Shown piece after piece: positions 19,969 to 41,847 of a stretch of DNA of 64,000 bases; within the stretch, counting starts at the first letter, position 1; the number at the start of each line of letters is the position of its first letter. Source of the DNA: an uncultured delta proteobacterium. Lineage in GTDB: Bacteria > Myxococcota_A > UBA9160 > SZUA-336. The stretch is from contig CAVPRM010000002.1 of NCBI GenBank assembly GCA_963707945.1, positions 17,819 through 81,818 of the forward strand, in the 5' to 3' direction. A program made the translations under genes and the position numbers. The notes under the pieces were generated by a model. The model saw only the letters and a program-made list of their open reading frames with translations, was not told where the DNA came from and did no database searches.

Positions 19969-19984
19969 TGGCATGGCGCTTGCT
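19969..19984 (+). promoter_or_regulatory. sigma54 -24/-12 promoter
   Basis: TGGCATGGCGCTTGCT. Confidence 0.75.
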
Positions 19985-19996
19985 CCGCGTGCTCAC

Positions 19997-21130
19997 ATGT
20001 CTCGCGAGAACCGACGCGCGTCGAAGCGCGGCCCGGCCAAGGTGCGCTACGCCGTGGTCGGCCTCGGGCACATCGCCCAGGTCGCGGTGCTTCCCGCGTT
20101 CGCGCACGCGCGCCGGAACTCCGAGCTCGTGGCGCTCGTCTCCGACGATCCGAAGAAGCTCGAGAGGCTGTGTCGCCGGCGCGGGATCCCTCACTGCGCG
20201 CACTACAGCCAGTACGAGGACCTGCTCGAGACGGGCGAGGTCGACGCGGTCTACATCGCGCTCCCGAACCACCTGCACCGCGAGTACGCGATGCGCGCGG
20301 CAGTCGCCGGCGTGCACGTCCTGTGCGAGAAGCCGCTCGCCTGCAGCGTCGCGGAGTGCGAGCAGATCATCGACGCCGCGGAGGACGGCGGCGTCAAGCT
20401 GATGACCGCCTACCGCCTGCACTTCGACCCCGCCAACCTGCGCGCGCGGGAGCTCGTGCGCAGGGGCGCGATCGGCGAGGCGCGCTACTTCACATCGCAG
20501 TTCTCCATGCAGGTGGTCGAGGGCAACGTCCGGCTCGATCGCCAGGCCGGGGGCGGACCGCTCTTCGACATCGGCATCTACTGCATCAACGCCGCGCGCG
20601 CGATCTTCAGCGCGGAGCCGCTCGAGGTCAGCGCGCTGCGCGCGAACGGCTCCGATCCGCGCTTTCGCGAGGTCGACGAGATGGTCGCCGCGACGCTCCG
20701 CTTCCCGGGCGAGCGCCTGGCTGAGTTCGTGGTCAGCTTCGGCGCTTCCGACGTCTCGTCGTACCGCGTGGTCGGCACCAAGGGCGACCTCCTCGTCGAG
20801 CCCGCGTACGACTACGCCGCCGCGCTCGCGCACCGGCTCACGGTGAAGGGAAAGACGCGGATCCGCCGCTTCGAGCGCACGGACCAGTTTGCCGCCGAGC
20901 TCCTGCACTTCTCGGACTGCGTGCTGCGCGACCGCGAGCCCGAGCCGTCGGGGCTCGAGGGTCTGATCGATGTCGCGGTGATCGAGGCGCTTCAGGAGTC
21001 GGCGGACATCGGTGCGCCGGTATCGTTCGCGCGGCCGCGGCGCTCGCGCCGTCCCGGAATCGAGCTCGCGACCCGGCGCCCGCCGGTGCGCAAACCGCAA
21101 CCCGTACACGCCAAAGAGAGCTCGCGCTAG
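19997..21130 (+). CDS. Gfo/Idh/MocA (glucose-fructose oxidoreductase-like) oxidoreductase
   Basis: YAVVGLGHI, LPNHLH, VLCEKP, GGGPLFDIGIY. Confidence 0.9.
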   Translation: MSRENRRASKRGPAKVRYAVVGLGHIAQVAVLPAFAHARRNSELVALVSDDPKKLERLCRRRGIPHCAHYSQYEDLLETGEVDAVYIALPNHLHREYAMRAAVAGVHVLCEKPLACSVAECEQIIDAAEDGGVKLMTAYRLHFDPANLRARELVRRGAIGEARYFTSQFSMQVVEGNVRLDRQAGGGPLFDIGIYCINAARAIFSAEPLEVSALRANGSDPRFREVDEMVAATLRFPGERLAEFVVSFGASDVSSYRVVGTKGDLLVEPAYDYAAALAHRLTVKGKTRIRRFERTDQFAAELLHFSDCVLRDREPEPSGLEGLIDVAVIEALQESADIGAPVSFARPRRSRRPGIELATRRPPVRKPQPVHAKESSR

Positions 21131-21151
21131 CCGCGAGCAAGGAGGAGCGAG

Positions 21152-21424
21152 ATGAACTTCCAGGAGATCGTGGACCACCTGCCGCCCCAGAAGGACCTCG
21201 TGCGAATGGCGCGCTTCGTCGCCTCGCTGCGCAGGCCCGCCCGCTCGGAGCTGATGCTCTTCGGGATCGCGGGCCTCTTGATCGGGGCAGGCGTTGCGCT
21301 CTTGTTCGCGCCCTCGCGCGGAAGCGAGCTGCGCGGCGCGATCGGGGAGCGCCTCGAAGAGTACTGGCGCACGGCGAACGAGTCGGTCAAGGCGAACGGC
21401 CATGCAGCCGCCGACGAGCGCTAG
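21152..21424 (+). CDS. YtxH-domain small membrane protein
   Basis: GAGVALLFAPSRGSELR; GGAGG RBS. Confidence 0.75.
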   Translation: MNFQEIVDHLPPQKDLVRMARFVASLRRPARSELMLFGIAGLLIGAGVALLFAPSRGSELRGAIGERLEEYWRTANESVKANGHAAADER

Positions 21425-21431
21425 GGGCACC

Positions 21432-21767
21432 GTGGCAGCCCCGCTGGCGAACGGCTCGTTCGTATCGGGCCTGTTTCGCGTCTTCGAAGCAGGCGAGCGT
21501 CTGCTCGTCGAGCAGGCCGAGCTGTTCCGGCTCGACTCGCGCGAGAAGCTGGGCTCGTTCGCGGCGCGCTTCGGGCTCGGCGCGCTCGGCGTGCTCTGCC
21601 TGCTCACCGCGTGGCTGGGGCTGCTGGCCGCGGCGGTCGTCCAGTTCGATCAGACGCTCACGCTCGGCGGACGACTGGCCCTGGCCGCATTGGCGCAGCT
21701 CGCGCTCGGCATCGCTCTGATCGCCGCAGCGCGCAGGAACATCAAGGGAGAAGGCAATGCATCATGA
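21432..21767 (+). CDS. YqjE/holin-X-like two-TM protein
   Basis: EQAELFRLD helix then two TM segments; typical context. Confidence 0.6.
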   Translation: MAAPLANGSFVSGLFRVFEAGERLLVEQAELFRLDSREKLGSFAARFGLGALGVLCLLTAWLGLLAAAVVQFDQTLTLGGRLALAALAQLALGIALIAAARRNIKGEGNAS

Positions 21768-21999
21768 AGCGGAACGCGAACGGCTCGAGAGCAACATCGA
21801 GCAGCACAAGAGCGAGCTGCGCCGCGCGCTGCGCGACCTGGGCATCTCGGCGCTGATCGCGATGAACCTGCCGCGCCGCATCCTGCGCAGACCGGTGCCT
21901 TGGGCGATCGCGGGGGTCGGCGTGGCGGCGTTCCTGTACGTTCGGGCACGGCGCCGGCGAGCGCAGGCGCCGTGGCACCTGCGCTCGCGGGGTCACTAG
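21757..21999 (+). CDS. DUF3618-like small protein
   Basis: Coiled coil LESNIEQHKSEL, C-terminal TM and basic tail; overlaps upstream stop. Confidence 0.55.
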   Translation: MHHEAERERLESNIEQHKSELRRALRDLGISALIAMNLPRRILRRPVPWAIAGVGVAAFLYVRARRRRAQAPWHLRSRGH

Positions 22000-22358
22000 G
22001 ACGAGGCCGCCTCGCTCCGGCGCGTGCGCTCGCGCTCGAGCGAGGTCGGTCGCGAGTGCTCCTTCCGGTACTCGCGAGCGCGCGTCGCGAGCTCGCTCGC
22101 ACGCTTCTGCAGGCGCTTGGCTCCCTTGCGCGTGTTCGCACGGAGCTCCTGGCCGCTCGTCGGCGCCAGGTAGAGAGCCGTGATCGCGCCGAAGCCGAGC
22201 AGCGCCAGCGCGCCGAGCACGCGCGGCGTGCGCGACGGACGCCGCGCGGACCAGGTGATGCTGGGCACGATCGCGCGCAGCAAGCCGTACACGTCGCCGC
22301 CGAGCTCCGAGGCGGAGCGCGGCCGGACGTTTCGCGGGCGAATGTTCTGGAGGGTCAT
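21996..22358 (-). CDS. YtxH-domain protein
   Basis: GAITALYLAPTSGQELR; GGAG RBS. Confidence 0.65.
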   Translation of the reverse strand: MTLQNIRPRNVRPRSASELGGDVYGLLRAIVPSITWSARRPSRTPRVLGALALLGFGAITALYLAPTSGQELRANTRKGAKRLQKRASELATRAREYRKEHSRPTSLERERTRRSEAASS

Positions 22359-22367
22359 CGAGGTCTC

Positions 22368-22583
22368 CTAACCGTTCGTGCGGCCGCGGCCGCGGTCGTC
22401 TTCCAGCGCGTCGAGCGTGTCGTCGATCTTCTGCTCGACCGCCTTCTTCACCTTGTGGGCCTTGTCCTTCACCACGCCGATCGCGTGATCACGCTTGCCT
22501 TCGCGCTCGAGGCTCTTGTTGCCCACGGCGCGACCAATCGCTTCCTTCGCTCGACCCTTCGCTTTGTCCACTTGTCCGGCCAT
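22368..22583 (-). CDS. CsbD-family general stress protein
   Basis: DKAKGRAKEAIGRAVGNKSLEREGK. Confidence 0.85.
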   Translation of the reverse strand: MAGQVDKAKGRAKEAIGRAVGNKSLEREGKRDHAIGVVKDKAHKVKKAVEQKIDDTLDALEDDRGRGRTNG

Positions 22584-22620
22584 CTCTGAATTCCTTTCGA
22601 GGTTTGGCAGCGCGGGACAA

Positions 22621-22636
22621 CGCAAGCGTCGTGCCA
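22621..22636 (-). promoter_or_regulatory. sigma54 -24/-12 promoter (csbD-like gene)
   Basis: TGGCACGACGCTTGCG. Confidence 0.78.
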
Positions 22637-22769
22637 CGCTCGCGCACCCGCGCCGTCGCCGAGACGCGCCGGGAGTGCTCGTTTCTACACAGCGCCCGGC
22701 CCGCTCGGGCAGAGCGCATGCAAATCCCGGGATTCGAAGGAGGAGGAGACCCCGGGCCGCTAGCCGCCT

Positions 22770-23048
22770 TCAGCGCGCGCTGCGTCTCGCCGCGTGAAGG
22801 TGATCCACGGCGCCGGTCTCGCCCGAGCGCGAGGCGCAGTGCGCGCAGCAGTACGTCATGTCACCGCTCTCGATGCCGTGTCCGATGATGCGGGTGCCGC
22901 AGTCGTCGCAGAGCGGCGCGAGCAGTTGGATCGCGCACTCGAAGCTGTCGAAGACGTGGGTCACGTCCTCCATCACGACGAGGAACGCCTTCGCGTAGTC
23001 GTTGCCGCAGACCTCGCAGGTCTTGTTGTTCCGGTTCATCGAGTCCAT
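22770..23048 (-). CDS. Cys-rich prokaryotic metallothionein-like protein
   Basis: CEVCGNDY, FDSFECAI, CDDCG..IIGHG, YCCAHC; AAGGAG RBS. Confidence 0.8.
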   Translation of the reverse strand: MDSMNRNNKTCEVCGNDYAKAFLVVMEDVTHVFDSFECAIQLLAPLCDDCGTRIIGHGIESGDMTYCCAHCASRSGETGAVDHLHAARRSAR

Positions 23049-23071
23049 CGGAGTCTCCTTCCTGGCAGGGG

Positions 23072-25223
23072 TCAGCTCGACAGGGAGACGACCAGATCCA
23101 GGTCGCCCGTCTGGCGCAACACGCGCAGGTCGACGTGGTCGCCCTCGCGCTCGCACAAGAGATCGATCGAATTGCCGTCGACTGCGAGCTCGCGGATCAC
23201 GAGCCAGTCGACGAACGAGGGCAGGGTGGGCCGCACGAGCCGGATCTGGCGTCTGCGCGCGTCGACCGAGAGACCCAGCACCGACTGCAGCAGCAGGAAC
23301 ACGCTCGCGGCCGACCAGGCCTGGGGCGAGCACGCGACCGGATAGGCCGTGGGCCCCTCCCCGGGCACGCGGGTGAAGCCGCACAGGAGCTCGGGCATGC
23401 GCGCATCGTCGAAATGGCGGCTCGCGTCGAAAGCTGCCGAGAGGATGCGGTTCACGCCCGCGATCGCGCCGAACCGGGCCAGGCCGTGCGCGACCAGAGC
23501 GTTGTCGTGCGGCCAGACCGAGCCGTTGTGGTACGACATCGGGTTGAAGCGCCTCGACGACGCTCCGAGCGTCCGTACGCCCCAGCCAGAGAAGAGATCG
23601 TCGGAGAGCAGCGTCTCGCCGACCAGCGCCGCGTGGTCGCGAGTGGCGATGCCGGCGAAGAGCGCGTGGCCGGCGTTCGAGCTGCGCACCCGGCAGGGAC
23701 GCTTCGCCCCGTCGAGCGCGAGCGCGTAGGTGTCGAGCTCGGGACACCAGAAGGCGTCGAGGAAGCGCGCGCGCAGGCGCTTGGCATCCTCCTCGAGCCC
23801 CTCGGCGCCGGAGGCGTCCCCGAGCCGCCGCAGGCAGCGCGCGAGCCCGAGCTTGGCGCCGTACACGTAGGCCTGCACCTCGCACAGCGCGATCGGTCCG
23901 CTCGCGAGCGAGCCGTCGGCGTGCGCGATCGAGTCGTGCGAGTCCTTCCACCCCTGGTTTGCGAGGCCGGTCGAGCGAGCGCTGCAGGTACTCGACGAAG
24001 CCGTCGCCGTCGGGATCGCCGGGGCCGTCGAGCCAGGCGAGCGCGCGCTCGAAGTTCGGCCAGAGCTCGCGCATGAGGTCGTCGTCGCCGGTGCGGTCGT
24101 GGTAGGCCCCGGCGAGGAGGAGGAACAGCGGGGTCGTGTCGACGCTGCCGTAGTAGCGCGCGAACGGCACTTCTCCGAGCGCGGCCATCTCGCCGCTGCG
24201 CATCTCGTGAACGATCTTGCCCGGCTCGGCGTCCTCGGCCGCATCGTGGCGATTCGACTGAGTCGCGGCCAGGAAGCGCAGCACGCCGCGCGTGAGCGCG
24301 GGGTCGAGCCAGAGCACCGAGTACGCCGCGATCAGCGCGTCGCGACCGAACGGCGTTCCGAACCAGGGCACCCCCGCGTAGGGGAACGGACCGGAGCGGG
24401 TCTCCGCGGTCAGCATCGAGAGGTCGGCGGCCGAGCGGCGGATCCAGGCGTCGAACGCGGGGTTCGACGAGCCGATGAACAGCGCCGAGGGGGGCTCGCG
24501 GCGCGGGGCGCGCGCCAGCGCGAACGCCCCGGAGCGGGTGCGCTGCTCGCCGCCGCGCAGCTCGCAGTCGACCACGAGCGAGAGCGCGCTGCGCTCGCCG
24601 GGCACGAGCTCGAGCTGGAACTGCGCGAAGTCCGGTCCGAGCGCGATGGGCGCGGGCTCGAAGGCGAGCCGGGTGTGCCGCGAGACCCGATCCAGCCCCA
24701 GGTAGGAGAGCTCGACGAAGTCGCGGCCGACGAGCGGTGTCGCCACGGTCCCGCGCTTCTCGCGCCGCGCGCCGCGCACCTCGAAGACGTCGGCGAAGTC
24801 CGCGGCGAAGCCGAACTCGAGCTCGACCGAGATCGGCTCCGGCGCGTAGCTGCGCAGCGCGAACTCCATCCGGCAGCCGCCGTCGAGCAGCTCGATCGAG
24901 CGGTGCAGGTAGACGCTCTCGCGCGGCAGGCGCAGGACCTCCCCGTCGCGCACGTCGGAATTCGTCGAGTGGATCGAAAGCCCTTCGTTCCCGCCGCGCG
25001 TTCCGGACGAGAGCAACAGAGGTCGCCTCCGCGCGAGCCGGACGCGCAGAGCCGACAGGAAGCGCGTGCCGTCGAAGAACAGGCCGTGCCGGCCGGTCGC
25101 AGTGGGGCGCAGGTCGCCGTGGCGATCGAACAGCGCGAAGCTGTCGCCGCGGGCGAGCACCAGGCCGCGAAAGTCGTCCCCCTCCTCGGCGAGGATCGGA
25201 AAACCGGTCTGCTCGGGGGTCAT
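23072..25223 (-). CDS. Amylo-alpha-1,6-glucosidase / glycogen-debranching family glycoside hydrolase (frameshift near 23975)
   Basis: ADFADVFEVRG, AGVPWF..FGRD, EPGKIVHE, YYGSVDTT, NQGWKDS, YHNGSVWPHD, YPVACSPQAW. Confidence 0.9.
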
Positions 25224-26257
25224 GCCAGGAATCGCTCGTACACGGCCGCGTAGTCGCGCGCCATCCGCTCGGCGGTGAAGCGGCGCTCGAACTCGGCGCG
25301 GCAGCGGCGGCGGTCGAGCTCGCCGATGCGCTCCACGGCCCGCACCGCCTCGTCGATCTCCGTGCAGAGGTAGCCCGAGACGCCGTCCTCGAGGACCTCG
25401 GGCACCGAGCCGTGCGGCCAGGCGATCACCGGAGTTCCGCAGGCGAGCGCCTCGATCATGATCAGCCCGAACGGCTCGGGCCAGTCGATCGGGAACAGCA
25501 CTGCGGCGGCGTTGCCGAGGAAGTCGTTCTTCTCGCCGTCGCCGAGCTCGCCGACGTACTCCACCAGCGGGTGGTCGAAGAGCGGCTGGATCTCGCGCTC
25601 GTAGTAGGCGCGATCGGCCGCGTCGATCTTGGCGGCGATGCGCAGCGGGCGGCCGGCGCGGACGGCGATCTCGATGGCGCGGTCGACCCGCTTCTCGGGC
25701 GAGATGCGGCCGAGGAACGCGAGGTAGCCGTCGCCGGCCGTCCCGGAAGCGGTACAGGTCCGGCGGCAGGCCGTGGTGGATCGTCGCCTGCCAGCGCGCG
25801 CCGCGGCAGCGGCCGCGCGCTGGTGGTCGGAGATCGAGATCACGCGCTGCTCGGGGTATTCGCGGAAGACCGGAACGAGCGAGGGCAGGTCCAGACGCCC
25901 GTGCAGGGTCGTCACGACCGGGCAACGCACGCGCCGCGCGAACGGGAACGCGAGGTAGTCCACGTGGGCGTGGATCACGTCGAACTCGTGCGCCCGCGAA
26001 AACGCCTCCTCGAGCATCACCAGGTGCGCCGCGATCGGATCGGGCGCGCCCGGATCGAGCCGCAGCGCTCGCGGCGCACACGGCACGAGCTCGGCCTTCG
26101 TCTGCGAGTCGCCCGAGGCGAACAACACCAGCTCGTGTCCGGCGGCGACCAGCGCCTCGGTCAGCCACGAGACCACCCGTTCGGTCCCGCCGTAGCCGGA
26201 CGGGGGCACCGACTCGTACAGCGGGGAGATCTGCGCGATCCGCATGCGCTGCATCAC
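25220..26257 (-). CDS. GT4 glycosyltransferase
   Basis: VPPSGYGGTERVV, FLGRISPEK, WPEPFGLIMIEALACGTP; compensating indels near 25740-25815. Confidence 0.92.
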   Translation of the reverse strand: MMQRMRIAQISPLYESVPPSGYGGTERVVSWLTEALVAAGHELVLFASGDSQTKAELVPCAPRALRLDPGAPDPIAAHLVMLEEAFSRAHEFDVIHAHVDYLAFPFARRVRCPVVTTLHGRLDLPSLVPVFREYPEQRVISISDHQRAAAAAARAGRRRSTTACRRTCTASGTAGDGYLAFLGRISPEKRVDRAIEIAVRAGRPLRIAAKIDAADRAYYEREIQPLFDHPLVEYVGELGDGEKNDFLGNAAAVLFPIDWPEPFGLIMIEALACGTPVIAWPHGSVPEVLEDGVSGYLCTEIDEAVRAVERIGELDRRRCRAEFERRFTAERMARDYAAVYERFLA

Positions 26258-26979
26258 TTGTCCTCCGGGAACTCGAACACGCGGTAGGGCGCGCCGAGCA
26301 CCGGCTGCGCCACGTTGCGCACGGCGACACCGCCGTGGGTCACGCCTTCCTCGCAGCCGAAGTGCGCGTGGCCGTGGAGCGCGAGGTCGGCGCCGGCCGC
26401 GTCGATCGCGTGGCCGAGCTCCTCGCAGCCCAGGAAGGGGTACAGCTCCCGGCGCTCGCCCATCAGCGTGTCGGGCACCGGCGCGTAGTGGAGCAGGGCG
26501 ATGCGCACGTCCGAGTCGAGCGCCGCGAGCGCCGCACAGAGCCGCTCCGACATGCTCCGGGTGCGCGCGGTGAAGGCCTTCATCTCCGGCTCGCCGAAGT
26601 CCGAGGCGCGCGCGTTCGCGAAGCCGCCGCCGAAGCCGGTCGTCCCGGCGATCCCCACGCTGCGCCCGCCGATCGACAGACGCACGTGGCTGCCCTCGAG
26701 CACGCAGACTTCCGCGCGTTCGAGGATCCGCCGCACGTCGTCCTCTTCGCCCGCGTCGAGGTCGTGGTTGCCGAGCACCGCGACGATCGGCAGCGGGACG
26801 TCCGCCAGCGCGCCCGCCAGGAAGCGCGCCTGCGCGCCCGTGCCGTTCTGGGTCAGATCGCCCGCGAGCAGCAGGAGGTCGGCGTCGTCGGCTAGCCCCG
26901 CGAACGCGTCGCGCCAGGCGCCGGCGCGCTCGTCGTCGACGTGAAGATCGCCCGTCGCGGCCACGCGCAGCCCCCTCAC
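26254..26979 (-). CDS. Calcineurin-like metallophosphoesterase
   Basis: GDLH, AGDLT, LGNHD, LHYAP, HGHAH. Confidence 0.9.
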   Translation of the reverse strand: MRGLRVAATGDLHVDDERAGAWRDAFAGLADDADLLLLAGDLTQNGTGAQARFLAGALADVPLPIVAVLGNHDLDAGEEDDVRRILERAEVCVLEGSHVRLSIGGRSVGIAGTTGFGGGFANARASDFGEPEMKAFTARTRSMSERLCAALAALDSDVRIALLHYAPVPDTLMGERRELYPFLGCEELGHAIDAAGADLALHGHAHFGCEEGVTHGGVAVRNVAQPVLGAPYRVFEFPEDK

Positions 26980-27602: not shown

Positions 27603-27614
27603 GACGCAAGGACG

Positions 27615-27660: not shown

Positions 27661-28725
27661 TCACTTGAACTCGGCGGGCGCCGTGAACGCAATGCCCGAC
27701 TGATGCTCCGCGAGCACCTCGACCACGGCCAGGTAGAGGTCTTCGGCGATCGCGAAGTACTCGTCGAGCGAGCGGGTCATCACGTAGGCCGAGATCTCGA
27801 GGTTGATCGAGTACGCGCCGAAGCCCACCACCCGCACGCGCGCGCTGTCGCGCTCGATCTCCGTGCGCTTCGCGAGCAGCTCGCGGAGCGAGGCCAGGAT
27901 CGCGCGGAGCCGGTCGGGCGGAGTGTTCGAGCGCAGCGCCAAGGTCGGGTGGAACCAGATCTTGTCGCGCAGCCCGAAGTTCTCGAGCTGCAGATTCGCG
28001 AATTCGGCGTTGGGCACCGTCACCAGCGTGCGGTCGGGAGTGCGCACCCGGGTCGAGCGCAGGCCGATCTCCTCGACCTCGCCGAAGCGCTCGCCGAAGC
28101 GGCAGAACTGCCCGACCCGCACCGGCCGATCGAGGTAGAGCGTGACGCCGCCGAACAGGTTCTCGATGGACTTCTGCGCGGCGAGCGCGATCGCGATGCC
28201 ACCCAGCCCGACGCCGGCGAGCAGCGCCGTCACGTGCACTCCCGCGTTGTCCAGCACCATGATCGCCGCGATGCCGAGCGCGGCGATCTTCGCGGCGCGG
28301 TGCGCGAGCGCGAGCGTCGAGCTCGCCTGACCCTGGCCGCGCCGCTGGAAGCGGTGTCGGTAGTCGTCGGCCAGCAGGTCGAGCAGGCGCAGCACCTGCC
28401 AGAACCCGGCGATCACGAGCAGCGTGCTCTCGAGCGTCGCGAACAGCGCGGTGCTCGCCTTCGACAGCTCGATCGGCCTGCGCGCGAGCGAGAAGAAGAG
28501 CGCGAACAGCGCGAGCCGCAGAGGCCCGGCGGCGGTGCGCAGCAGGCGGTCGTCGAAGGTCGCCGGCGTGCGCCGGGTCATCGCGCCGAGCGCGCGCAGC
28601 ACGAGCAGCGACACGAGCCACGCGCCGGCGACCGCGAGCGCAAGGGCCGCGAACATGCCGAGCCATTCGGCCAGGTCGAGACGCGCGAGCGCCGCTTGCG
28701 CCTGCGCTAGGACGGGGACGGGCAT
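27661..28725 (-). CDS. MscS-family mechanosensitive channel
   Basis: GLGGIAIALAAQ, GEVEEIGLRST, VPNAEF. Confidence 0.93.
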   Translation of the reverse strand: MPVPVLAQAQAALARLDLAEWLGMFAALALAVAGAWLVSLLVLRALGAMTRRTPATFDDRLLRTAAGPLRLALFALFFSLARRPIELSKASTALFATLESTLLVIAGFWQVLRLLDLLADDYRHRFQRRGQGQASSTLALAHRAAKIAALGIAAIMVLDNAGVHVTALLAGVGLGGIAIALAAQKSIENLFGGVTLYLDRPVRVGQFCRFGERFGEVEEIGLRSTRVRTPDRTLVTVPNAEFANLQLENFGLRDKIWFHPTLALRSNTPPDRLRAILASLRELLAKRTEIERDSARVRVVGFGAYSINLEISAYVMTRSLDEYFAIAEDLYLAVVEVLAEHQSGIAFTAPAEFK

Positions 28726-28738
28726 CGCGGAGCCGTCG

Positions 28739-28770
28739 TGCAAGCCCCGGGCCGGGGCACGCCTCTTGCT
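28739..28770. promoter_or_regulatory. Abutting divergent sigma54 promoters (mscS minus, PLD plus)
   Basis: 28739-28754(-) CGGCCCGGGGCTTGCA; 28755-28770(+) GGGCACGCCTCTTGCT. Confidence 0.65.
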
Positions 28771-28784
28771 CCCTGTATCCGCGC

Positions 28785-30275
28785 ATGCAGGCCGCGCAAC
28801 ACGCCGTACCGGGACGAACCTGCTGGCGCACCGAGCGCGCGGGCCGAGTCGCGTTCCTCGTCGATGGCGCCCGCTACTTCGCCGCGCTCGCGCAGGCGCT
28901 CGAGCGGGTCGAGCGCAGCGTCCTGATCGTCGGCTGGGACTTCCACGGCCGCACGCGGCTTCGCCCGGACTCGCCGGTCGACGACCTCCCGGACGAGCTC
29001 GGGCCGCGGCTCGACGCGCTCGTGCGTCGGCGCCCGGAGCTCGAGGTCCGCGTGCTCGAGTGGGACTATTCGCTGCTCTACGCGCTCGAGCGCCGCTTCG
29101 CGTCGTGGCTCGACACGGCGTGGTCTCGCCACGAGCGCTTTCAATTGCGGCTCGACGACCAGCACCCTTTTGGCGCGAGCCAGCACCAGAAGCTGGTCGT
29201 GCTGGACGACGCGCTCGCCTTCACCGGTGGGCTCGACCTGACGCTGCGCCGCTGGGACACGTCCGAGCACCACTGTGACGACCCGCGCCGCGTCGCTCCC
29301 GACGGCCGTCCGTACGACCCGTTCCACGACGTGCAGATCGCCGTCGACGGCGCGGCGGCGCGCGCGCTCGGCGAGCTGGCCCGCGAGCGCTGGCGCCGTG
29401 CGACGGGCGAGGTGCTCGCCCCGGTTCGACCCGGCCCCGACCCGTGGCCCGACGCTCTCGAGCCCGACGCGGGCGACGCGCCCATCGCGATCGCGCGCAC
29501 CGAGCCCGCGCTCGACTCAGCGCCCCCGGTGCGCGAGGTGCAAGCGCTGCTGCGCGCGGCGATCGCCGGTGCGCGTCGCTCCATCTACATCGAGAGCCAG
29601 TACTTCACCGCGCCGTGCGCGGCCGAGGCGCTGCGCGCGCGGCTCGGCGAACGCGATGGCCCCGAGATCGTCCTGGTGCTGCCCGCGCGCTGCTCGGGCT
29701 GGATCGAGCAGAACACCATGGGCCGCTTGCGCGTCGACCTGGTGCGCTCGCTGCGCGAGGCGGACCGCTTCAAGCGCCTGCGCGTGCTGGCCCCTCTGGC
29801 CACCGGCGGCGCGCCGATCAACGTCCACTCGAAGCTCTGCATCGTCGACCGCACCTTTCTCAAGATCGGCTCGGCGAACCTGTCGGCGCGCTCGATGGCC
29901 ATGGATAGCGAGTGCGACCTCGTGCTCGAGAGCGGCGATCGGCCGGACTTGCGCAGGGCGATCGGCGGACTGCGCACCCGGCTCCTGGCGGAGCACCTGG
30001 GCGTTTCCGCGACTCAGTTCGAGGCGGCGCTCCTGCTGGCGCGCGGGTCGCTGGTCGCGGCGATCGACTCGCTCGCGGGCGGCGAGCGAGGGCTCGTGCC
30101 GGTCACCGGCTGCGAGCGGGCCGCAGGAGGCGACTGGATGCGCGCGCTGCCGATCGATCCCGAGGACCCGCTCCCGATCTCGGCCCCCGCCGCCAAGCGG
30201 GGCGGCCTCGCGGCGATCGGGGCGCTGCTGTGCGCCGCGGGCGCGCTCCTGTGGCTGCGCCGCGCCCGCGACTAG
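28785..30275 (+). CDS. Phospholipase D family protein
   Basis: Two HKD motifs: HQKLVVLDD and HSKLCIVD..GSAN; one C-terminal TM. Confidence 0.9.
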   Translation: MQAAQHAVPGRTCWRTERAGRVAFLVDGARYFAALAQALERVERSVLIVGWDFHGRTRLRPDSPVDDLPDELGPRLDALVRRRPELEVRVLEWDYSLLYALERRFASWLDTAWSRHERFQLRLDDQHPFGASQHQKLVVLDDALAFTGGLDLTLRRWDTSEHHCDDPRRVAPDGRPYDPFHDVQIAVDGAAARALGELARERWRRATGEVLAPVRPGPDPWPDALEPDAGDAPIAIARTEPALDSAPPVREVQALLRAAIAGARRSIYIESQYFTAPCAAEALRARLGERDGPEIVLVLPARCSGWIEQNTMGRLRVDLVRSLREADRFKRLRVLAPLATGGAPINVHSKLCIVDRTFLKIGSANLSARSMAMDSECDLVLESGDRPDLRRAIGGLRTRLLAEHLGVSATQFEAALLLARGSLVAAIDSLAGGERGLVPVTGCERAAGGDWMRALPIDPEDPLPISAPAAKRGGLAAIGALLCAAGALLWLRRARD

Positions 30276-31379: not shown

Positions 31380-31498
31380 CGCGATTTTGTCGTCGGTGTG
31401 CCGGAGTTTTGTAGACGAGTTCCGTCGACGAACGTGATCGCGCGCACTATTGTGGACTCGCGCGCGTGCACACGATGCGACAGCGCGACCCCGCGCGC

Positions 31499-33405: not shown

Positions 33406-33421
33406 GGCGTTCTCCTCTGCT

Positions 33422-35185
33422 TCACTCGGTTGGAGCAAGAACCGAACCAACCCGTGGCGGCGCGAGCGCGACGAAGCGATCCGGCGCGAGCTCGATGCGG
33501 TCGAGCGCGATCGCGCAGTCGTCGCTGGAGGCGAGCTGGATCTCGACCGGAGCGAAGCGCTCGAGGGGGATCGAGACGCGCTCGTGGCCGAAGCTCGCGG
33601 CGATCTGCACGGGGCCGCGCCGCAGCAGGATCCAGCCTTCCTTCTCGCTGCAGCGCACGTCCAGCTCGAGCAGCCGTCCGGCGCCGAGCGCGCGCACGCG
33701 TTTGCGCAGGCGCAGCAGGGAGCGATGCCACTCGAGCATTCGCCGGTGCGCCGGCCGCACGAGCTCGGTCCAGTCGAGCTTCGCCGAGAGGAAGGTGTCG
33801 GGCGCGCACGGATCGAGCGAGTCGTCGTGAGCGTCACCGCAGGTGCCGGTCGCCTGGCGCCGGCCGTGGCGAACGCTGTCGCACAGCCCTCGGTCGCGGT
33901 AGTCGCAGAAGAAGGGGAACGGCGTCCGCGCGCCCCACTCCTCGCCCTGGAACAAGAGCGGGATGCAGGGGCCGCACAGGACGAGCCCCGCCACGACCTG
34001 GAGGCGCTCCGGGGAAAGCAGCGCCGAGAGTCGCTCGCCGCGCGGTCGGTTCCCGATCTGATCGTGGTTCTGCGCGAAGCCGACGAGCTGCGCACCCGAC
34101 AGGCGCGGATCGGCGCGCCCGTGTCGGCGCCGGCGGTGGGGCGAGTAGCGGCCCGCGTAGACGAGGCCGCGCGAGAACGCCTCGACCAGCTCCGCGCAGC
34201 CGCCGAAGTCGGAGTAGTAGCCGTGGCGCTCGCCGGTCGCGAACGCGTGGAGCGCGTGGTGGAAGTCGTCGTTCCAGATCGCGTCGAGGCCGAAGCCTCC
34301 GTCCGCGCGCGGCCGCACGAGCCGCGGGTCGTTCGCGTCGCTCTCGGCGATCAGGAAGAGCGGCCGCCCCAGCCGCAGCGACAGCGTGTCGACCGCAGCG
34401 CGCAGCTCCTCGAGAAAGTGGAGCGGCGAGCGGTCGACGAGCGCGTGGACGGCGTCGAGACGGAGGCCGTCGCCGTGGTAGTCGCGCAGCCAGGCGAGCG
34501 CGCTGTCGATGAACAGGCGGCGCACCTCGTCCGAGTCGGGGCCGTCGAGGTTCGGCGCGCGTCCCCACTGCGTTCCGATCTGTCCCGACAGATAGGGGCC
34601 GAAGCGCGGCAGGAAGTTCCCCTCCGGGCCGAGGTGGTTGTGCACGACGTCGAAGACCACCGCGAGCCCGCGCGCGTGGCACGCGTTCACCAGCTGCTTC
34701 AGCTCTTCGGGGGTGCCGTAGGCGGGGTGGGGCGCGAACGGCGCGACGCCGTCGTAGCCCCAGCCGTGCTCGCCGGAGAACGCGGCGATCGGCATCAGCT
34801 CGACGTGGGTCGCGCCGAGCTCGACCAGGTGATCGAGGCGCTCGATCGCGCCGAGGAACGTGCCCGCGGGCGTGAAGGTGCCGACGTGCAGCTCGTAGAA
34901 CACGGCGCGCGGGAGAGCTTCGGCGGTGAAGCCGTCGTCCTGCCACGGGAATGCGCCGTGGCAGAGCGTCCGCGAGTAGCCGAACACGCCGTCCGGCTGC
35001 CAGCGCGAACGGGGGTCGGGCAGCGGGTAGTCGCCGTCGAGCGAGAATGCGTAGTCGAGATCTCCGTCGTGCGCGTGGTCGCGCCGCCACCAACCGCCGT
35101 CGCCGCGGCGCATCGGGAAGCGGCCGTCGCGGGTGACGAGCTCGACGCGCCCGGCTGCGGGCGCCCAGACTTCGAAGCGGGTCAT
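33422..35185 (-). CDS. treZ: Malto-oligosyltrehalose trehalohydrolase
   Basis: FEVWAP, YELHVGTF, WGYDG, GLRLDAVH, WNDDFHH, QNHDQIGNR. Confidence 0.95.
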   Translation of the reverse strand: MTRFEVWAPAAGRVELVTRDGRFPMRRGDGGWWRRDHAHDGDLDYAFSLDGDYPLPDPRSRWQPDGVFGYSRTLCHGAFPWQDDGFTAEALPRAVFYELHVGTFTPAGTFLGAIERLDHLVELGATHVELMPIAAFSGEHGWGYDGVAPFAPHPAYGTPEELKQLVNACHARGLAVVFDVVHNHLGPEGNFLPRFGPYLSGQIGTQWGRAPNLDGPDSDEVRRLFIDSALAWLRDYHGDGLRLDAVHALVDRSPLHFLEELRAAVDTLSLRLGRPLFLIAESDANDPRLVRPRADGGFGLDAIWNDDFHHALHAFATGERHGYYSDFGGCAELVEAFSRGLVYAGRYSPHRRRRHGRADPRLSGAQLVGFAQNHDQIGNRPRGERLSALLSPERLQVVAGLVLCGPCIPLLFQGEEWGARTPFPFFCDYRDRGLCDSVRHGRRQATGTCGDAHDDSLDPCAPDTFLSAKLDWTELVRPAHRRMLEWHRSLLRLRKRVRALGAGRLLELDVRCSEKEGWILLRRGPVQIAASFGHERVSIPLERFAPVEIQLASSDDCAIALDRIELAPDRFVALAPPRVGSVLAPTE

Positions 35186-37836
35186 GATTCGTCCTCCTCG
35201 CTGGAGAGCAGTGCGACCGGGAAGCGGGCGAACAGCCGCGCCACCGGCACGATTCCGCCCGCGAAGCGCTCGCCGCTGAACACGTCCCGGTTTCGGCCGG
35301 CGGGCAGCTCGAGCTCGGTGTCGCCCCAGCCGTCGAGCCGCAGTCCCAGCCGCGGAACGGCGCAGACGAGTCCCCTGCGGGCGAAGGCGACCACGCGCTC
35401 GGCGGCGACCCCGCGCGCGAACAGAGGGACGTAGCCGCTGCGCGCGCCGAAGCGTTCGGGGTGGCGGCGCCGCTCGGCGAGCGCGCGCTGGATCACGAAC
35501 AGCTTCGGCAGACCCTCGTCGGCGCGCGCGATCACCTGCTCGCAGGTCGCCGCGCGCACCGCGGCCAGCAGCTGGCGGCGCGCCGCGAAGTCGACCGGCC
35601 GGCGGTTGTCGGGGTCGACCAGCGACAGATCCCAGAGCTCGCTGCCCTGGTACAGGTCGGGCACGCCCGGGCTCGCGAGCTTGAGCAGGAGCATCGCCAG
35701 CGAGTTGACCCGCCCGGCGCCGGTGAGCTCGGCGGCGAATCGCTCGAGCTCGAGGCGGAAGCCGCGATCGTCGAAGAGCGCGTCGACGAAGCGCGCGACG
35801 GCGTCCTCGAAGGTGCGGTCGGGTGCGAGCCAGCTCGTGCGCTCCTTGGCTTCGCGCGCCGCCTTCAGCGCGAACGCCGCCGCGCGCTCGCGCGAGATCG
35901 GCCAGGCACCGACGAGGGTCTGGTAGAGCAGGTACTCGAGCTTGGGATCCGGCCCGGCGGCGGAACGGTGGCGGCGGTTCCGTGCGAACCAGCCGCGCAC
36001 CGTGTCGGCCCAGCGCGCGGGGATCTCGGACAGGAGCGCGAGCCGCGCGCGGACGTCCTCGCTGCGCTTGGTGTCGTGCGTCGAGGTCGCCAGCAGGGTG
36101 CGCGGCCAGCGCCGCTGCGCTTCGCCGTTCGCGCCGTGGAAGTCGAGCGGCGACACCGCGAACGCGCCCGGGTCGCAGCCGACCTCGCTCAGCGCCGCGA
36201 GCCGCGGCCAGGCATAGCCGGCGGTGTCCTCGACCCCTTTGGCCATGAGCGCGCTCGAGAGCTGCTGGAAGCGCAGCACGAGCTCCGTCTCCTGGGGGCC
36301 GTGCAGCTGGCGGTACAAGAGCGCACCGAGGAAGTCGAGCAGCGCCGGGTCGAGCTCGGGCGAGCGCTCCTTCGCGGCGCGCAGCGCGCGCGCGACCGTG
36401 TTCTGCGACGCCGGGTCCAGAGCGGTGTCGCGGCCGCGCGCATAGCTGCGGTAGCACGGCCAGGCGACGAGGAGCGCGGCCAGGGCGCCCTCGAGCTCGG
36501 CGCGCGACCAGTCGCGCTGCTCGACGCGCGCGTCGCAGATCTCGGCCAGGAGCTCGCCGAGCCGGCCGAGGTCGGCTGCGAACAGGTCGGCGAGCGCGCG
36601 CTCCTTCCCGTCCGCCGCGGCGTCGCTCCAGCTGCGCGCGTCCCCGGTGAGCTCGGTGTACAGCGCGCCGAGCGCCTCCTCCCCCGCGGGATCGACGAAG
36701 AGGCCGGTCGAGCGCCACAGGAAGTCGTAGCCGGTCGTTCCGGCGATCGGCCAGCTCGCGGGCAGCGCCTCGCCCGTCGCCAGGATCTTCTCGACCACGA
36801 TCCACGCCGCGGGCGCCGACAGGGCGATCCAGTCGAGGTAGCCGCGCGGGTCGCGCAGCCCGTCCAGGTGGTCGATGCGCAGCCCCGCGATCTCGCCGCG
36901 CGCGAGCCGCTCGAGCACGAATCCGTGCGACTCGGCGAACACGCGGCGGTCCTCGACTCGGACGGCGACCAGCTCCGAGACGTCGAAGAAGCGCCGGTAG
37001 TCGAGCTCCCGCGCCGCGCCGCGCCAGTGCGCGAGCCGGTAGTTCTGGCGCTCGAGCAGCGTGTGCATGCGCTCGGGGTCGGCGTTCCAGCGGCCGATCG
37101 CGGCGTCGACCGCCAGCGCGGCCGAGGGATCCTCGCGGCACAGCCGCGCGAGCAGCCCGCGCAGCACCTCCTTGTGCGAGTGACGCCGCTCTACGCTCGC
37201 GGGATCGAGATTCGTCGCGAGGGGCAGCGCGCCGTGCGCGTAGGCGAGGAACTCGAGCAGCGGCGAGCCGGCGCGCTCGGCCGCGTCGCGCAGCAGCTCG
37301 TCGACCGAGCGCGGCGCTATCGGCAGCTTCTGGGTCGCGACCTGCAGGACGAACGAGCCCTCGTCGCGGGCGAGCCGCAGCTCGCCCTCGTTCAGGACGG
37401 AGCCGTAGCGTTCGCCCAGGATCGGCAGCAGGATCCGATCGGCCTGGTGACGCTCCGCGCCGCGCCAGTCGACGTCGAAGAACCCGGACGCGCGGCTCGC
37501 GGGACCGTTCTCGAGCACGTCCCACCACCAGCGGTTCTCGGGCGCACGGGTGGACATGTGGTTGGGGACGACATCGAGCAGGAGCTCGAGCTCGTGCTCG
37601 CGCAGAGCATCGAGCAGGACCCCGAACCCGGCCTCGCCGCCGAGCTCGGCGCTCCAGCGCGAGGGGTCGACCACGTCATAGCCGTGCGCGCTGCCCGGCG
37701 CCGCCTGCAGCAGCGGCGAGCTGTACAGGTGGCTGACGCCGAGCTCGGCGAGGTAGTCGGCGAGCTCGGCGGCCTTCGCGAGGTCGAGCTCGGGCCCGAG
37801 CTGCAGGCGGTAGGTGGCGCGCGGCGCGGTCGCCAC
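35182..37836 (-). CDS. treY: Malto-oligosyltrehalose synthase
   Basis: ATYRLQ, HGYDVVD, RIDHLDGL, KGVEDT, STHDTKRSED, SLVDPDNRRPVD. Confidence 0.96.
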   Translation of the reverse strand: MATAPRATYRLQLGPELDLAKAAELADYLAELGVSHLYSSPLLQAAPGSAHGYDVVDPSRWSAELGGEAGFGVLLDALREHELELLLDVVPNHMSTRAPENRWWWDVLENGPASRASGFFDVDWRGAERHQADRILLPILGERYGSVLNEGELRLARDEGSFVLQVATQKLPIAPRSVDELLRDAAERAGSPLLEFLAYAHGALPLATNLDPASVERRHSHKEVLRGLLARLCREDPSAALAVDAAIGRWNADPERMHTLLERQNYRLAHWRGAARELDYRRFFDVSELVAVRVEDRRVFAESHGFVLERLARGEIAGLRIDHLDGLRDPRGYLDWIALSAPAAWIVVEKILATGEALPASWPIAGTTGYDFLWRSTGLFVDPAGEEALGALYTELTGDARSWSDAAADGKERALADLFAADLGRLGELLAEICDARVEQRDWSRAELEGALAALLVAWPCYRSYARGRDTALDPASQNTVARALRAAKERSPELDPALLDFLGALLYRQLHGPQETELVLRFQQLSSALMAKGVEDTAGYAWPRLAALSEVGCDPGAFAVSPLDFHGANGEAQRRWPRTLLATSTHDTKRSEDVRARLALLSEIPARWADTVRGWFARNRRHRSAAGPDPKLEYLLYQTLVGAWPISRERAAAFALKAAREAKERTSWLAPDRTFEDAVARFVDALFDDRGFRLELERFAAELTGAGRVNSLAMLLLKLASPGVPDLYQGSELWDLSLVDPDNRRPVDFAARRQLLAAVRAATCEQVIARADEGLPKLFVIQRALAERRRHPERFGARSGYVPLFARGVAAERVVAFARRGLVCAVPRLGLRLDGWGDTELELPAGRNRDVFSGERFAGGIVPVARLFARFPVALLSSEEDES

Positions 37837-37839
37837 GGC

Positions 37840-39942
37840 TCAGCTCTCCCGCCGCAGGAGCACGCTCGAGCGCGCCGCGACTTCGAGCCTCGCTCCCGCT
37901 TCGAGACGGAGCGGGCTCGCGACCAGGTCGTCCGCCGTGTCGAGCTCCACCGCCCACGCGCTCCCGAACAGCGCGGGCGGAAGCGCGAAGCGCACCGGCT
38001 CGGGCTGCGCGTTCAAGAGCCAGAAGAAGCTGTCGTCGCAGCACCCGCTCGCCGCGCGCGTCGGGGTGCGGGATCGCCTCGCCGTTCAGGAACACGGCGA
38101 GCGCGCGCGCGCCCGACTGCCAGTCCTCGTCCTTCATCAGCTCGCCGTCCGCGCGGAACCAGGCGATCTCGGGCGCGGGGTCGTGCGTGGGCAGATCGCC
38201 GAACCAGCCGCGGCGCCGAAACACCGGGTGGCTGCGCCGGAGCTCGACGATGCGGCTGGCGAACTCGAGGAGCTCCGCGTCCGCCGCCTCCCAGTCGAGC
38301 CAGGTCGTCTCGTCGTCGAGACAGTAGGCGTTGTTGTTCCCGCGCTGGCTGCGGCCGAGCTCGTCGCCGGCGAGCAGCATCGGCACGCCCTGCGACAGGA
38401 GCAGCGTCGCCAGGAAGTTGCGCTTCTGGCGCGCGCGCAGCGCGAGCACCTCCGGATCGTCGGCTCGGCCCCTCGGCGCCGCAGTTCCAGGAGCGGTTGT
38501 GCGACTCGCCGTCGCGATCGTTCTCGCCGTTGGCCTCGTTGTGCTTGTCGTCGTACGAGACCAGGTCGTGGAGCGTGAAGCCGTCGTGCGCGGTCACGAA
38601 GTTGATGCTCGCGTGCGGGCGGCGGCCGCTCGTGCCGTAGAGATCCGAGCTGCCCGCGATGCGGCAGGCGAGCTCGCCGAGCGCGCCGGTCTCGCCGCGC
38701 CAGTAGTCGCGCACGGCGTCGCGGTACTTGCCGTTCCACTCCGACCAGAGCGGCGGGAAGTTGCCGACCTGGTAGCCGCGCTCGCCGATGTCCCACGGCT
38801 CGGCGATCAGCTTCACCCGGCTCACGACCGGGTCCTGCTGGATCAGGTCGAAGAACACGGCGAGCCGGTCGACGTCGTGCAGCTCGCGCGCCAGCGCCGC
38901 GGCGAGGTCGAAGCGGAAGCCGTCGACCTGCATCTCCTGGACCCAGTAGCGCAGCGAGTCCATGATCAGCTGCAGCACGCACGGGTTGCGCATGTTCAGG
39001 CTGTTGCCCGTGCCGGTGTAGTCGGTGTAGTAGCGCGGGTCGCCGTCGACGAGGCGGTAGTAGCCGGCGTTGTCGAAGCCCTTGAGCGAGAGCATGGGTC
39101 CTGCGTGGTTGCCCTCGGCCGTGTGGTTGTAGACGACGTCGAGGATCACCTCGATGCCGGCCGCGTGGAGCGTCTTCACCAGGTGCTTGAACTCCTGCAC
39201 GACCTGGTGCGGGCGGTCCGCCGCGGCGTAGGCGGCGTGCGGCGCGATGAAGCAGACGGTGTTGTAGCCCCAGTAGTTGCGAGCGGCCGCGGTCGACCAG
39301 GTGCGCGTCGTGCGCGAAGGCGTGGATCGGCATCAGCTCGACCGCCGTCACGCCGAGCTTCTTCAGGTGGGCGATCACGGCGGGGTGCGCGAGGCCCGCG
39401 TAGGTGCCGCGCAGCTCGGGCGGCACCTCCGGGTGGCGCATCGTGAAGCCGCGCACGTGCAGCTCGTAGATCACGGTCTCGTGGAGCGGCGTGCGCGGCG
39501 GGCGGTCGTCGCCCCAATCGAACAGGGTCGAGACGACGACCGACTTGGGCAGCGCGCTCGCGCTGTCGGTCGGGTCGGGCGCGCCGTTCGGATCGCCGTC
39601 GAGCGGGTGCGGGAACAGCGACTGACCCCAGCGGAACTCGCCCTCGAGCGCGCGGGCGTAGGGATCGATCAGGAGCTTGGCGGGATTGCAGCGCTGGCCC
39701 TGGCGCGGAAGCCACGGACCGTGGACCCGATAGCCGTAGCGCTGGCCGGGCTCGACCCCGGGCAGGTAGCCGTGCCACACCGCGCCCGTTCGCTCGGGCA
39801 GGAAGACGCGCGTCTCCACGTCGTCCGCGTCGAAGAGACAGAGCTCGACCGCGTCGGCGATGTCGCTCGTCACCGAGAAGCAGGTGCCGAGCCCGTCGAA
39901 CGTCGCCCCCAAGGGGAAGGGTTGCCCCGGCCAGACTTTCAC
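37840..39942 (-). CDS. glgX: Glycogen debranching enzyme GlgX/TreX (frameshifted)
   Basis: [56 protein letters not shown]. Confidence 0.93.
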
Positions 39943-39955
39943 GTCCGCAGAGCGG

Positions 39956-39971
39956 AGCACGTTGTGTGCCA
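39956..39971 (-). promoter_or_regulatory. sigma54 -24/-12 promoter (glgX-treY-treZ operon)
   Basis: TGGCACACAACGTGCT. Confidence 0.65.
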
Positions 39972-40095
39972 CGCGCGGAGCGCGCTCTTTCTCCCACGGG
40001 TCCGCGCAGACGCGCGGAGCGAGCGCTTTCTACAAGTGCCGCATCCGATCTACACCGGTGACGGGGCGCACGTTCCGCGCGGGACGCAGACGAGC

Positions 40096-40111
40096 CGGCA
40101 CGGTGCCTGCA
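40096..40111 (+). promoter_or_regulatory. sigma54 -24/-12 promoter (AI-2E gene)
   Basis: CGGCACGGTGCCTGCA. Confidence 0.62.
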
Positions 40112-40124
40112 CACCCGACTCAGC

Positions 40125-41847
40125 ATGACGCGTGCCGAGGGGACTCCTGGCATCGCGACCATCGCCGCCGGCGCAGTGGTCGTCGCGGCACTCTACTTCG
40201 CCAAGGACTTCCTGCTGCCGCTCGCACTGGCGGGGCTATTCGCCTTCATGCTGGGTCCGCTGGTGCGCCGGCTCGAAGCCGCGCACGTGCCGCGCGTGCT
40301 CTCGGTCATAGCGATTGCGGTCGCGCTGCTCTCGGCCCTCGCGCTGATCGGCTGGTTCCTCTCGAACGAGGTCACGAGCCTCGTCGCGAGCCTCCCGGAT
40401 TTTCGCGCGAACCTGGTCGAGAAGCTGCGCGCTCTGCGCGGGCCGCTGCGCTCGCTGGCCGACGCGCTGGGCTGGATCGACCGGCTCAGCAAGGAGATCG
40501 ACCCCGCGGCCGCGCACGGTCAGGCGCCCAAGGTCGAGATCGTGGAGTCGCCGACGGCGATGGGCGCGCTCGGTCGCTTCGTGACGCCGCTGCTCGACGT
40601 GCTCGGAACGGCGGGCATCGTGGCCGTGCTCGCGATCTTCATCCTCGTGCAGAGCGATCTTCCCAAGCGGATCTCCGCGCTGTTCGCGCTGCGCGGCTCG
40701 CGCATCTCGCCGCGCGCGCTCGAGGAGGCGGGTCAGCTCGTCAGCGGCTTCCTGGTGCGCCAGGCCATCGTCTGCGCGACTGCAGGGCGTGATCGTGACG
40801 ATCGGCCTCGCGCTGATCGGCGTGCCCGGCGCGCTGCTCTTCGGCTCGCTATCGGCGCTGCTGCGCTCGATCCCTTACTTCGGACCGACGACCGCTGCGG
40901 CGCTCCCCATCCTGTTCTGTCTGGCCGCGTTCCCGGGCTTCGAGATGGCGCTCTGGACCGCCGGCTTCTTCGTCTGCCTGGAGCTCTTCACGAACAACGT
41001 GCTCGATCCGCGCGTCCTGGGGCAGGGCGCCGGCCTGTCGCCGTTTGGTGTCATCCTCTCGGCCACGTTCTGGGCGTGGCTCTGGGGCCCCGTGGGTCTG
41101 TTCGTCGCGATTCCGCTCACGGCTTGCTTGACGGTGGTCGGACGCTACGTGCCGCAACTCGCGTTCGTCCCAGCGCTCCTGGCGCATGATCTGGTGGTGC
41201 CGCCGGCGACCCAGCTCTACGAGCGACTGGTCGCGCGCGAGTCCGAGGACGCGGCGACCTTGCTGCGCCACGCAGTGAAGGACGGCGACCTCGTAGAGCT
41301 CTCGGACGCATTGGTGCTGCCGATGCTGGTCACGCTCGCGGCCGAGCGCGAGGCCGGCCGCTGTACCCGCGCGGACCAGTTGCGTTGTCTGCACCTGTTG
41401 CGCGACTTGCTGGCCGAGCTCGTCGGAGCCGTGCCAGTCCCGGCGAACGGCGCAGCCACCCGGACACTTTCGGTGGAAGAGCTCCGAGGCAGCCTCGTCG
41501 ATCGCTTCGCGCGTGATTGGGTCGCGACGGTCCTCGAGAGATCCGGCTTCGCCGTGGTGACGAGCCCGGAAGTCGCGCCGCTGGTCGTCTTCACCGTGGT
41601 CGGCGCTCGCAGCGTCGAGGACGCACTCCACTCGGCGCGAACCGCCGCGCGGGTCCGTGACCGCGAAGGAGTCGTGATCGCCGCCGTCGGAGATCAGGAC
41701 GGGGTCCAGCGCATCGGCTCGCTAGCGGTCGTGCGCTCGTGCGCAGCGTTGCTCGCCGCGCTCGCGCCTGCGCCGATCGCGCGCAGCGAGCGCCCGAGCG
41801 ACACGTTCGAGGCGGCGGTCGTCGAGCAACGCGCGGCCGCGTCCTGA
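40125..41847 (+). CDS. AI-2E/PerM family transporter with C-terminal soluble extension (frameshift near 40785)
   Basis: LLPLALA..F, LRSIPYFG, FWAWLWGPVGL..AIPLT. Confidence 0.88.

Follow-up and report, generated by a model that had tools for sequence, protein, structure and literature searches.

The window analyzed here is a stretch of 64,000 nucleotides (nt; G000:C2:17819-81818) from the genome of an uncultured delta proteobacterium (genome G000; 4.93 Mb, 3 contigs, 71% GC), and our subject is a set of seven putative sigma-54 promoters that directly abut the start codons of the genes downstream. The preliminary description of the window had placed seven GG-N10-GC motifs 14-17 nt before a start codon with no Shine-Dalgarno (SD) sequence in between; the coordinates and distances are exact, and the spacers are SD-free. 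Throughout, positions are those of the window, d is the distance from the −12 C to the first base of the start codon, and mismatches are counted against the 11 specified positions of the sigma-54 consensus TGGCAC-N5-TTGCT. On the plus strand, a Gfo/Idh/MocA oxidoreductase gene (19997-21130, ATG 19997) is preceded by the motif TGGCATGGCGCTTGCT (19969-19984) at d=14, leaving a 12-nt spacer without an SD sequence. The gene for a DUF2204/NTP_transf_5 nucleotidyltransferase (27602-26976, minus strand, ATG 27602) follows CGGCACGGGGCTTGCT (27630-27615, minus strand) at d=14. The gene for an MscS channel (28725-27661, minus strand, ATG 28725) has the motif CGGCCCGGGGCTTGCA (28754-28739, minus strand) at d=15, and the divergent gene for a PLD-family protein (28785-30275, plus strand, ATG 28785) has GGGCACGCCTCTTGCT (28755-28770, plus strand) at d=16. 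A DUF748 membrane protein is encoded at 31348-30272 (minus strand, GTG 31348) behind CGGCATATCTCTTGCT (31379-31364, minus strand) at d=17. Finally, glgX (39942-38137, minus strand, GTG 39942) has TGGCACACAACGTGCT (39971-39956, minus strand) at d=15, and the divergently transcribed gene for an AI-2E family transporter (40125-41189, plus strand, ATG 40125) has CGGCACGGTGCCTGCA (40096-40111, plus strand), also at d=15.

With 1-3 mismatches to the consensus, all seven sites match better than the bare GG-N10-GC would require, and the tetramers GGAG, GAGG, and AGGA are absent from all seven spacers (12-15 nt). The window as a whole contains 30 matches at ≤2 mismatches, compared with 16.0 ± 3.7 in shuffled sequences, and 0 of 100 shuffles reached 30. 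The divergent gap between the MscS and PLD genes is only 59 nt long (28725-28785) and consists wholly of two back-to-back sigma-54 motifs with touching −24 ends. In the genomes G001 and G011, which belong to the same genus as G000, the two motifs begin 41 and 50 nt apart.

The distances depend on the choice of start codon, and the open reading frames (ORFs) stay open 21-174 codons upstream of the chosen starts. Orthologue N-termini, Pfam offsets, and tblastn alignments support the chosen start codons as the true N-termini. The Pfam domain GFO_IDH_MocA begins at residue 16 of the oxidoreductase; in genes with the same layout elsewhere in the genome, Sod_Fe_N begins at residue 4, Cpn60 at residue 23, and Patatin at residue 4. 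The remark in the preliminary description that the glgX start fits the usual GlgX N-terminus is borne out, as GlgX aligns with its homologues in many phyla beginning at residue 1-2, and CBM_48 begins at residue 10. In the case of PLD, there is no further in-frame start codon within 59 codons on either side of ATG 28785. True starts lying further downstream behind an SD sequence had been named as the outcome that would speak against the layout; six of the seven genes have no SD-preceded in-frame alternative, and the nucleotidyltransferase gene alone has a downstream in-frame start after an SD-like tetramer. That start is disfavored because the N-terminus of this protein is conserved from residue 2 (MLPGA or VLPGA). 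A coding-potential change-point gene caller, which has a noise of about ±15 codons and fails at divergent genes, served as a rough check only.

The layout is conserved among relatives. In the loci retrieved from G001 and G011, the block of nucleotidyltransferase, MscS, PLD, and DUF748 genes keeps a motif 14-17 nt before each start. Individually, the motif lies at d=14 in the Gfo orthologue of G011, at d=14 in the nucleotidyltransferase orthologues of both genomes (with a start codon alternating between ATG and GTG), and at d=14 in both PLD orthologues; the MscS orthologues keep motif and start at d=15 in G001 and d=17 in G011, and the DUF748 orthologue of G001 has the motif at d=15 before a GTG. 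For AI-2E, the motif is kept at d=15 in G011 and d=14 in G009. Thus, motif, spacing, and N-terminus are jointly kept in orthologues from G001, G011, or G009 for six of the seven genes, all but glgX. On a broader scale, the pattern GGCAC-N5-TTGCT-N11-14-RTG (RTG, ATG or GTG) occurs 633 times, in 120 of the 121 sampled genomes of the class, while the same pattern with a spacer of N21-24 occurs 290 times in the class (family counts, 221 versus 70). G000 has 18 occurrences of the forward pattern, and the reversed-pattern control yields 0-3 per genome.

Genome-wide, the outcome depends on how the motif is defined. The bare GG-N10-GC occurs at 127,144 sites, and starts are not enriched at 14-17 nt or at any other offset from it; because of this abundance without a distance peak, it is uninformative. 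With the full consensus, 66 sites have ≤1 mismatch, and plausible starts (ORF ≥80 codons, GC content at third codon positions [GC3] ≥0.85) lie at d=13-16 in 16 of the 66, compared with 2.7 expected from offsets 60-200 (Poisson p=3e-8). The distance peak implied by the preliminary description is therefore present, at d=13-16, for the full motif and absent for the bare one. Automatic sorting of the 66 sites gave 22 abutting sites (a long, high-GC3 ORF at the motif), 19 SD-led sites (an SD-like sequence plus a start), 8 sites inside coding sequence, and 17 unassigned sites, of which several look by eye like SD-led small ORFs. The layout is systematic: among the best sites, 41 have an assignable gene start, and 22 of these abut it. 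The 22 abutting sites comprise 1 at d=13, 11 at d=14, 6 at d=15, 2 at d=16, and 2 at d=18 (20 at d=13-16), the 19 SD-led sites have their start codon between d=24 and d=66, and the interval d=19-23 is free of starts across all 66. A distribution of d=13-18 on the one hand and ≥24 on the other, with an empty interval at 19-23, fits a single transcription start site (TSS) about 12-15 nt after the −12 C; with such a TSS, a start codon lies either almost at the 5′ end of the transcript or far enough downstream to leave room for an SD sequence. The base at −1 is uninformative as a TSS marker, being C in 18/30 sigma-54-abutting, 175/298 sigma-70-type, and 176/334 SD-led cases.

The two layouts meet in glgX. 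In G000, the motif is followed by a 13-nt spacer and then by GTG-AAA-GTC-TGG, and an SD-less glgX at d=14 is likewise found in three metagenome-assembled genomes (MAGs) labeled Myxococcota (L002), Acidobacteriota (L003), and Thermoanaerobaculia (L018). In G011, G001, and G009, there are about 10 extra bases containing GGGGGA or GGGGA, and d is about 24-26; in G011 and G001, the N-terminus is nevertheless identical (VKVWPGQP) despite the SD insert. The same glgX promoter thus serves either an abutting or an SD-led layout. The SD sequence of the G011 gene starts 13 nt after the −12 C, which places the TSS at or before about that position and, consequently, the start codon of G000 glgX within a few bases of +1. 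In two further MAGs labeled Thermoanaerobaculia (L004 and L012), glgX has a sigma-54-like motif 44-46 nt upstream and an SD-like GAGGG. Across phylum labels, then, glgX seems to be under sigma-54 control in the abutting as well as the SD-led layout. The closest named relative of this glgX is in a MAG labeled Myxococcota (70% identity), and the next ones are in MAGs labeled Acidobacteriota or Thermoanaerobaculia.

The genome also offers a context in which starts close to the 5′ end would not be unusual. Plausible starts peak 7-10 nt after the sequence TANNNT, with 298, 227, 139, and 105 starts versus about 46 per offset, and a TANNNT −10 box lying 6-12 nt before the start accounts for an excess of about 600 genes; at d=7-8, 199 of the 525 TANNNT-linked starts use GTG. 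Judging by these signatures, a leaderless-type architecture is widespread among the genes of G000. The habit is not class-wide, as TANNNT-N6-ATG is clearly above the reversed control only in genus g1 and a few genera, and its ratio to that control is about 1 in most other families. Because the habit is genome-wide in G000, the sigma-54 promoters follow the local custom and need not represent a special device. The suggestion of the preliminary description that leaderlessness might favor translation under stress is thus not supported: with about 600 TANNNT-type starts, a leaderless layout is ordinary here. The stress-related gene content described below bears on what sigma-54 controls in this bacterium and not on how its messages are translated.

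As for the machinery of sigma-54-dependent transcription, a domain search with Sigma54_activat gave 15 full-length matches in the genome (E ≤1e-60 for each), plus fragments, and none of the matches lies inside the window. There is one rpoN, with the AID, CBD, and DBD domains present but split by a frameshift in this assembly. At about 12 sigma-54 promoters, abutting and SD-led alike, an AT-rich near-palindrome (TTTGTAGAAA / TTTCTACAAA) occupies a nearly fixed position some 53 nt upstream of the TGGCAC box; about 8 of these loci lie outside the window. In the window, two copies of this TCTACA(A) element lie at 40029..40054, between the divergent glgX and AI-2E promoters, and further copies lie at 19915-19920 (Gfo), 22684-22689 (csbD), and 31410-31415 (DUF748). 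The hexamer TCTACA occurs within −130 to −20 at 9 of the 66 best sites, compared with about 1.5 expected from its genome frequency, and the near-palindrome is common to divergent promoter pairs and kept in the orthologues of G001 and G011. It could be a binding site for an activator or for a DNA-bending protein. A dyad search for a palindromic activator site returned only GC-rich noise; it was a plain count of 7-mers that yielded TCTACAA.

We consider it likely that these are genuine enhancer-dependent sigma-54 promoters fused to ORFs, giving near-leaderless mRNAs. At canonical sigma-54 promoters, +1 lies about 12 nt after the −12 element, and this spacing would leave a leader of only 0-4 nt. 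In our model, the sigma-54 RNA polymerase, activated by one or more of the about 15 enhancer-binding proteins, would initiate some 12-15 nt past the −12 C; the 5′ end of the transcript would then coincide with the ATG or GTG or precede it by 1-4 nt. The SD-less message would then be translated by the leaderless route that hundreds of genes with sigma-70-type −10 boxes in this genome already appear to use. The same promoters would also drive short leaders that begin roughly with the SD sequence (d ≥24), and orthologous genes would switch between the abutting and the SD-led layouts by indels of about 10 nt. Many of the predicted targets would function in stress and storage, i.e., glgX with its trehalose neighbors, MscS, BON, CsbD, superoxide dismutase (SOD), the GroEL paralogue, M48, and the ECF sigma factor. 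More tentatively, we speculate that, in this lineage and in further phyla with sigma-54, the sigma-54 holoenzyme may routinely make true leaderless mRNAs; initiation would fall on the first base (A or G) of a start codon located 13-16 nt downstream of the −12 C, which would couple activator-gated transcription directly to SD-independent translation; sigma-54 might then be a general-stress sigma factor, and indels of about 10 nt might move genes between the two modes without changing promoter or protein.

Several points weigh against the reading of these sites as sigma-54 promoters that give near-leaderless mRNAs. The MscS and AI-2E motifs are weak, with 3 mismatches each. The sigma-54 dependence, like the position of the TSS and the mode of translation, is deduced from sequence. 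Canonical spacing would put the start codon at +2 to +5 rather than at +1, and several of the abutting starts are GTG, while leaderless translation in E. coli and S. meliloti is reported, in the available text of the source, to need a 5′-terminal AUG (PMC3616915). Lastly, rpoN of G000 (C2:618.2-620.1 kb; L001 1492-2959, minus strand) is split by one frameshift within Sigma54_CBD, the core-binding domain.

One alternative is that sigma-54 holoenzyme binds the motifs, while the productive mRNAs have longer leaders that originate from upstream promoters, the bound holoenzyme being a poised complex, a roadblock, or a minor promoter. A precedent exists at ahpC of Myxococcus xanthus, where the available part of the report documents two promoters, one for sigma-A and one for sigma-54, whose activator sites overlap (PMC12754779). 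We nevertheless regard this alternative as unlikely. The MscS-PLD gap is filled by its two motifs, and any other promoter would have to sit inside the neighboring gene; the two distance classes separated by an empty interval are predicted by two modes of translation from one TSS and not by mere binding; and the SD insert of glgX is located downstream of the motif.

It is also quite improbable, in our view, that the regulon is decaying in G000, with a truly frameshifted rpoN and promoters that are relics of recent ancestry. The argument for decay is the occurrence of the G000 gene in two frames, together with an intact rpoN in all five relatives inspected (G001, G011, G004, G009, and G012; CBD in open frames of 487-1130 amino acids [aa]). 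However, other genes of G000 are split as well, two genes for activators among them, and the completeness estimated from markers is 74.8%. Split genes and low completeness in an assembly of only 3 contigs are typical of indel errors, and the promoters of G000 are as near to the consensus as those of its relatives. Because of the low completeness, the other split genes, and the intact relatives, we read the split as an assembly indel, which the data suggest rather than prove. The N-terminal frame of rpoN continues into a downstream PTS_EIIA_2 (ptsN-like) gene. Finally, chance co-occurrence of motifs and freely chosen starts in a 71% GC genome, which the frequency of the bare motif without a distance peak and the long open frames upstream of the starts might have suggested, is hardly credible and already contradicted by the Poisson statistic of the full motif, the two distance classes, the reversed-pattern control, and the retention of motif, spacing, and start in orthologues.

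Sigma-54 promoters and leaderless mRNAs are each known separately, and it is their combination that appears to be new. Descriptions of leaderless mRNAs concern sigma-70-family or archaeal promoters, and in Actinobacteria such mRNAs likewise arise from −10 elements adjacent to the ORF. To our knowledge, the two bacterial phyla best known for leaderless mRNAs lack sigma-54. The preliminary description was aware of no systematic architecture of this kind; consistently, the texts that our literature search reached, which did not extend to supplementary TSS tables that may hold cases, nowhere connect sigma-54 promoters with leaderless mRNAs. E. coli glnAp2 and nifH are canonical sigma-54 promoters. 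The promoters described here resemble the canonical type in their TGGCAC-N5-TTGC element, in the encoded AAA+ activators and the rpoN gene (frameshifted in this assembly), and in an AT-rich upstream element that could be an activator or bending site; they differ in that the canonical examples have SD-containing leaders, whereas here the −12 C and the start codon are only 13-16 nt apart, too close for an SD sequence to fit in between. For glnA of Xylella fastidiosa, for instance, the available text reports a canonical sigma-54 promoter with a TSS 35 bp before the ATG (PMC3224663).

In Deinococcus-Thermus, −10 regions adjacent to ORFs are reported to yield leaderless mRNAs, according to the available part of the source (PMC12340547). 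The arrangement found here is similar in that a promoter element is fused to the ORF without an SD sequence and at many genes, and the TANNNT signature at d=7-10 is its counterpart in this genome. The difference is that Deinococcus-Thermus uses the −10 boxes of the sigma-70 family, while the −12 box of sigma-54 would require an ATP-dependent activator. The general stress regulons of sigma-B in Bacillus and sigma-S in E. coli include CsbD, BON/OsmY-like proteins, trehalose synthesis, MscS, SOD, and chaperones. By analogy, the gene content of the putative sigma-54 regulon appears to overlap with these, although the sigma family and the logic of activation are different. A parallel in a GC-rich lineage is the PexR system of M. 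xanthus, in which sigma-54 and an activator control stress genes and leaderless mRNAs (≤5 nt) have been proposed at the same loci, as stated in the accessible part of the report (PMC12754779). That system would share sigma-54 with its activator and the stress genes with the arrangement described here; it differs in that the leaderless pexR transcript is assigned to a sigma-A-type promoter, and the accessible part of the report describes no sigma-54 leaderless transcript (PMC12754779).

If our reading is correct, activator-dependent transcription would feed directly into leaderless translation, and because there would be no 5′ untranslated region as a layer of regulation, such stress genes would be controlled at the level of transcription alone. 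In addition, a sigma-54 box 13-16 nt upstream would mark the start codon and allow better calibration of gene starts in GC-rich uncultured lineages. The promoters would also be a natural test bed for start-site choice by the sigma-54 polymerase, as the two distance classes and the empty interval of 19-23 nt would constrain +1.

The putative sigma-54 targets share, judging by gene content, a theme of stress and storage. Three further sites, the first two of them in the promoter island at 19-42 kb, have an SD-containing leader. The gene for a CsbD-like stress protein (feature 22368..22636, minus strand) has the motif TGGCACGACGCTTGCG (22636-22621), an SD sequence aaaggaa, and ATG 22583 at d=39; it is the SD-led counterpart of the abutting promoters within the same island. 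The sigma-54-like motif TGGTTCGGTTCTTGCT (33434..33449, minus strand), with a GAGGAG SD and an ATG behind it, precedes a small ORF and a BON-domain gene (32917-32543, minus strand). In the feature at 42168..42229 (plus strand), the perfect consensus TGGCACGGCCCTTGCT is followed by a leader with AGGAGA and by ATG 42227 at d=45. The two alpha-amylase-family genes downstream of glgX (37836-35182 and 35185-33422, both on the minus strand) are read as treY and treZ, which would make trehalose from glycogen. The rest of the island encodes a GDE-type debranching enzyme, a metallophosphatase, and, counting the one described above, two nucleotidyltransferases in all.

Elsewhere in the genome, genes that abut a sigma-54 motif encode an Fe/Mn SOD, a GroEL paralogue, an M48 protease, an ECF sigma factor, a patatin, and an MFS transporter. 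The GroEL paralogue (C1:1486720-1488342; L112) has its motif at d=15, and no GroES gene is present in the 250 nt upstream of it. The Fe/Mn SOD (L118) and ECF sigma factor (L110) genes have the same start-abutting layout.

Other features of the window lie outside the promoters. At 22770-26330 on the minus strand, a 1186-aa open frame contains a GDE_N_bis domain only at residues 392-585, and the coding-potential scan splits the same stretch into different frames, making a frameshift or a gene fusion possible. A single tRNA gene (18986-19058; Rfam, 69.5 bits) is located immediately before the promoter island, and Rfam found no rRNA in the window. The first 8 kb (1-8000) have a GC content of 62-65% versus about 71% elsewhere and carry genes for polysaccharide synthesis (acyltransferase-SGNH, flippase, GT8, GT1, and epimerase), and a Wzz-like gene follows at 12078-13766; the region at 1-8000 is possibly a horizontally acquired surface-polysaccharide cluster.

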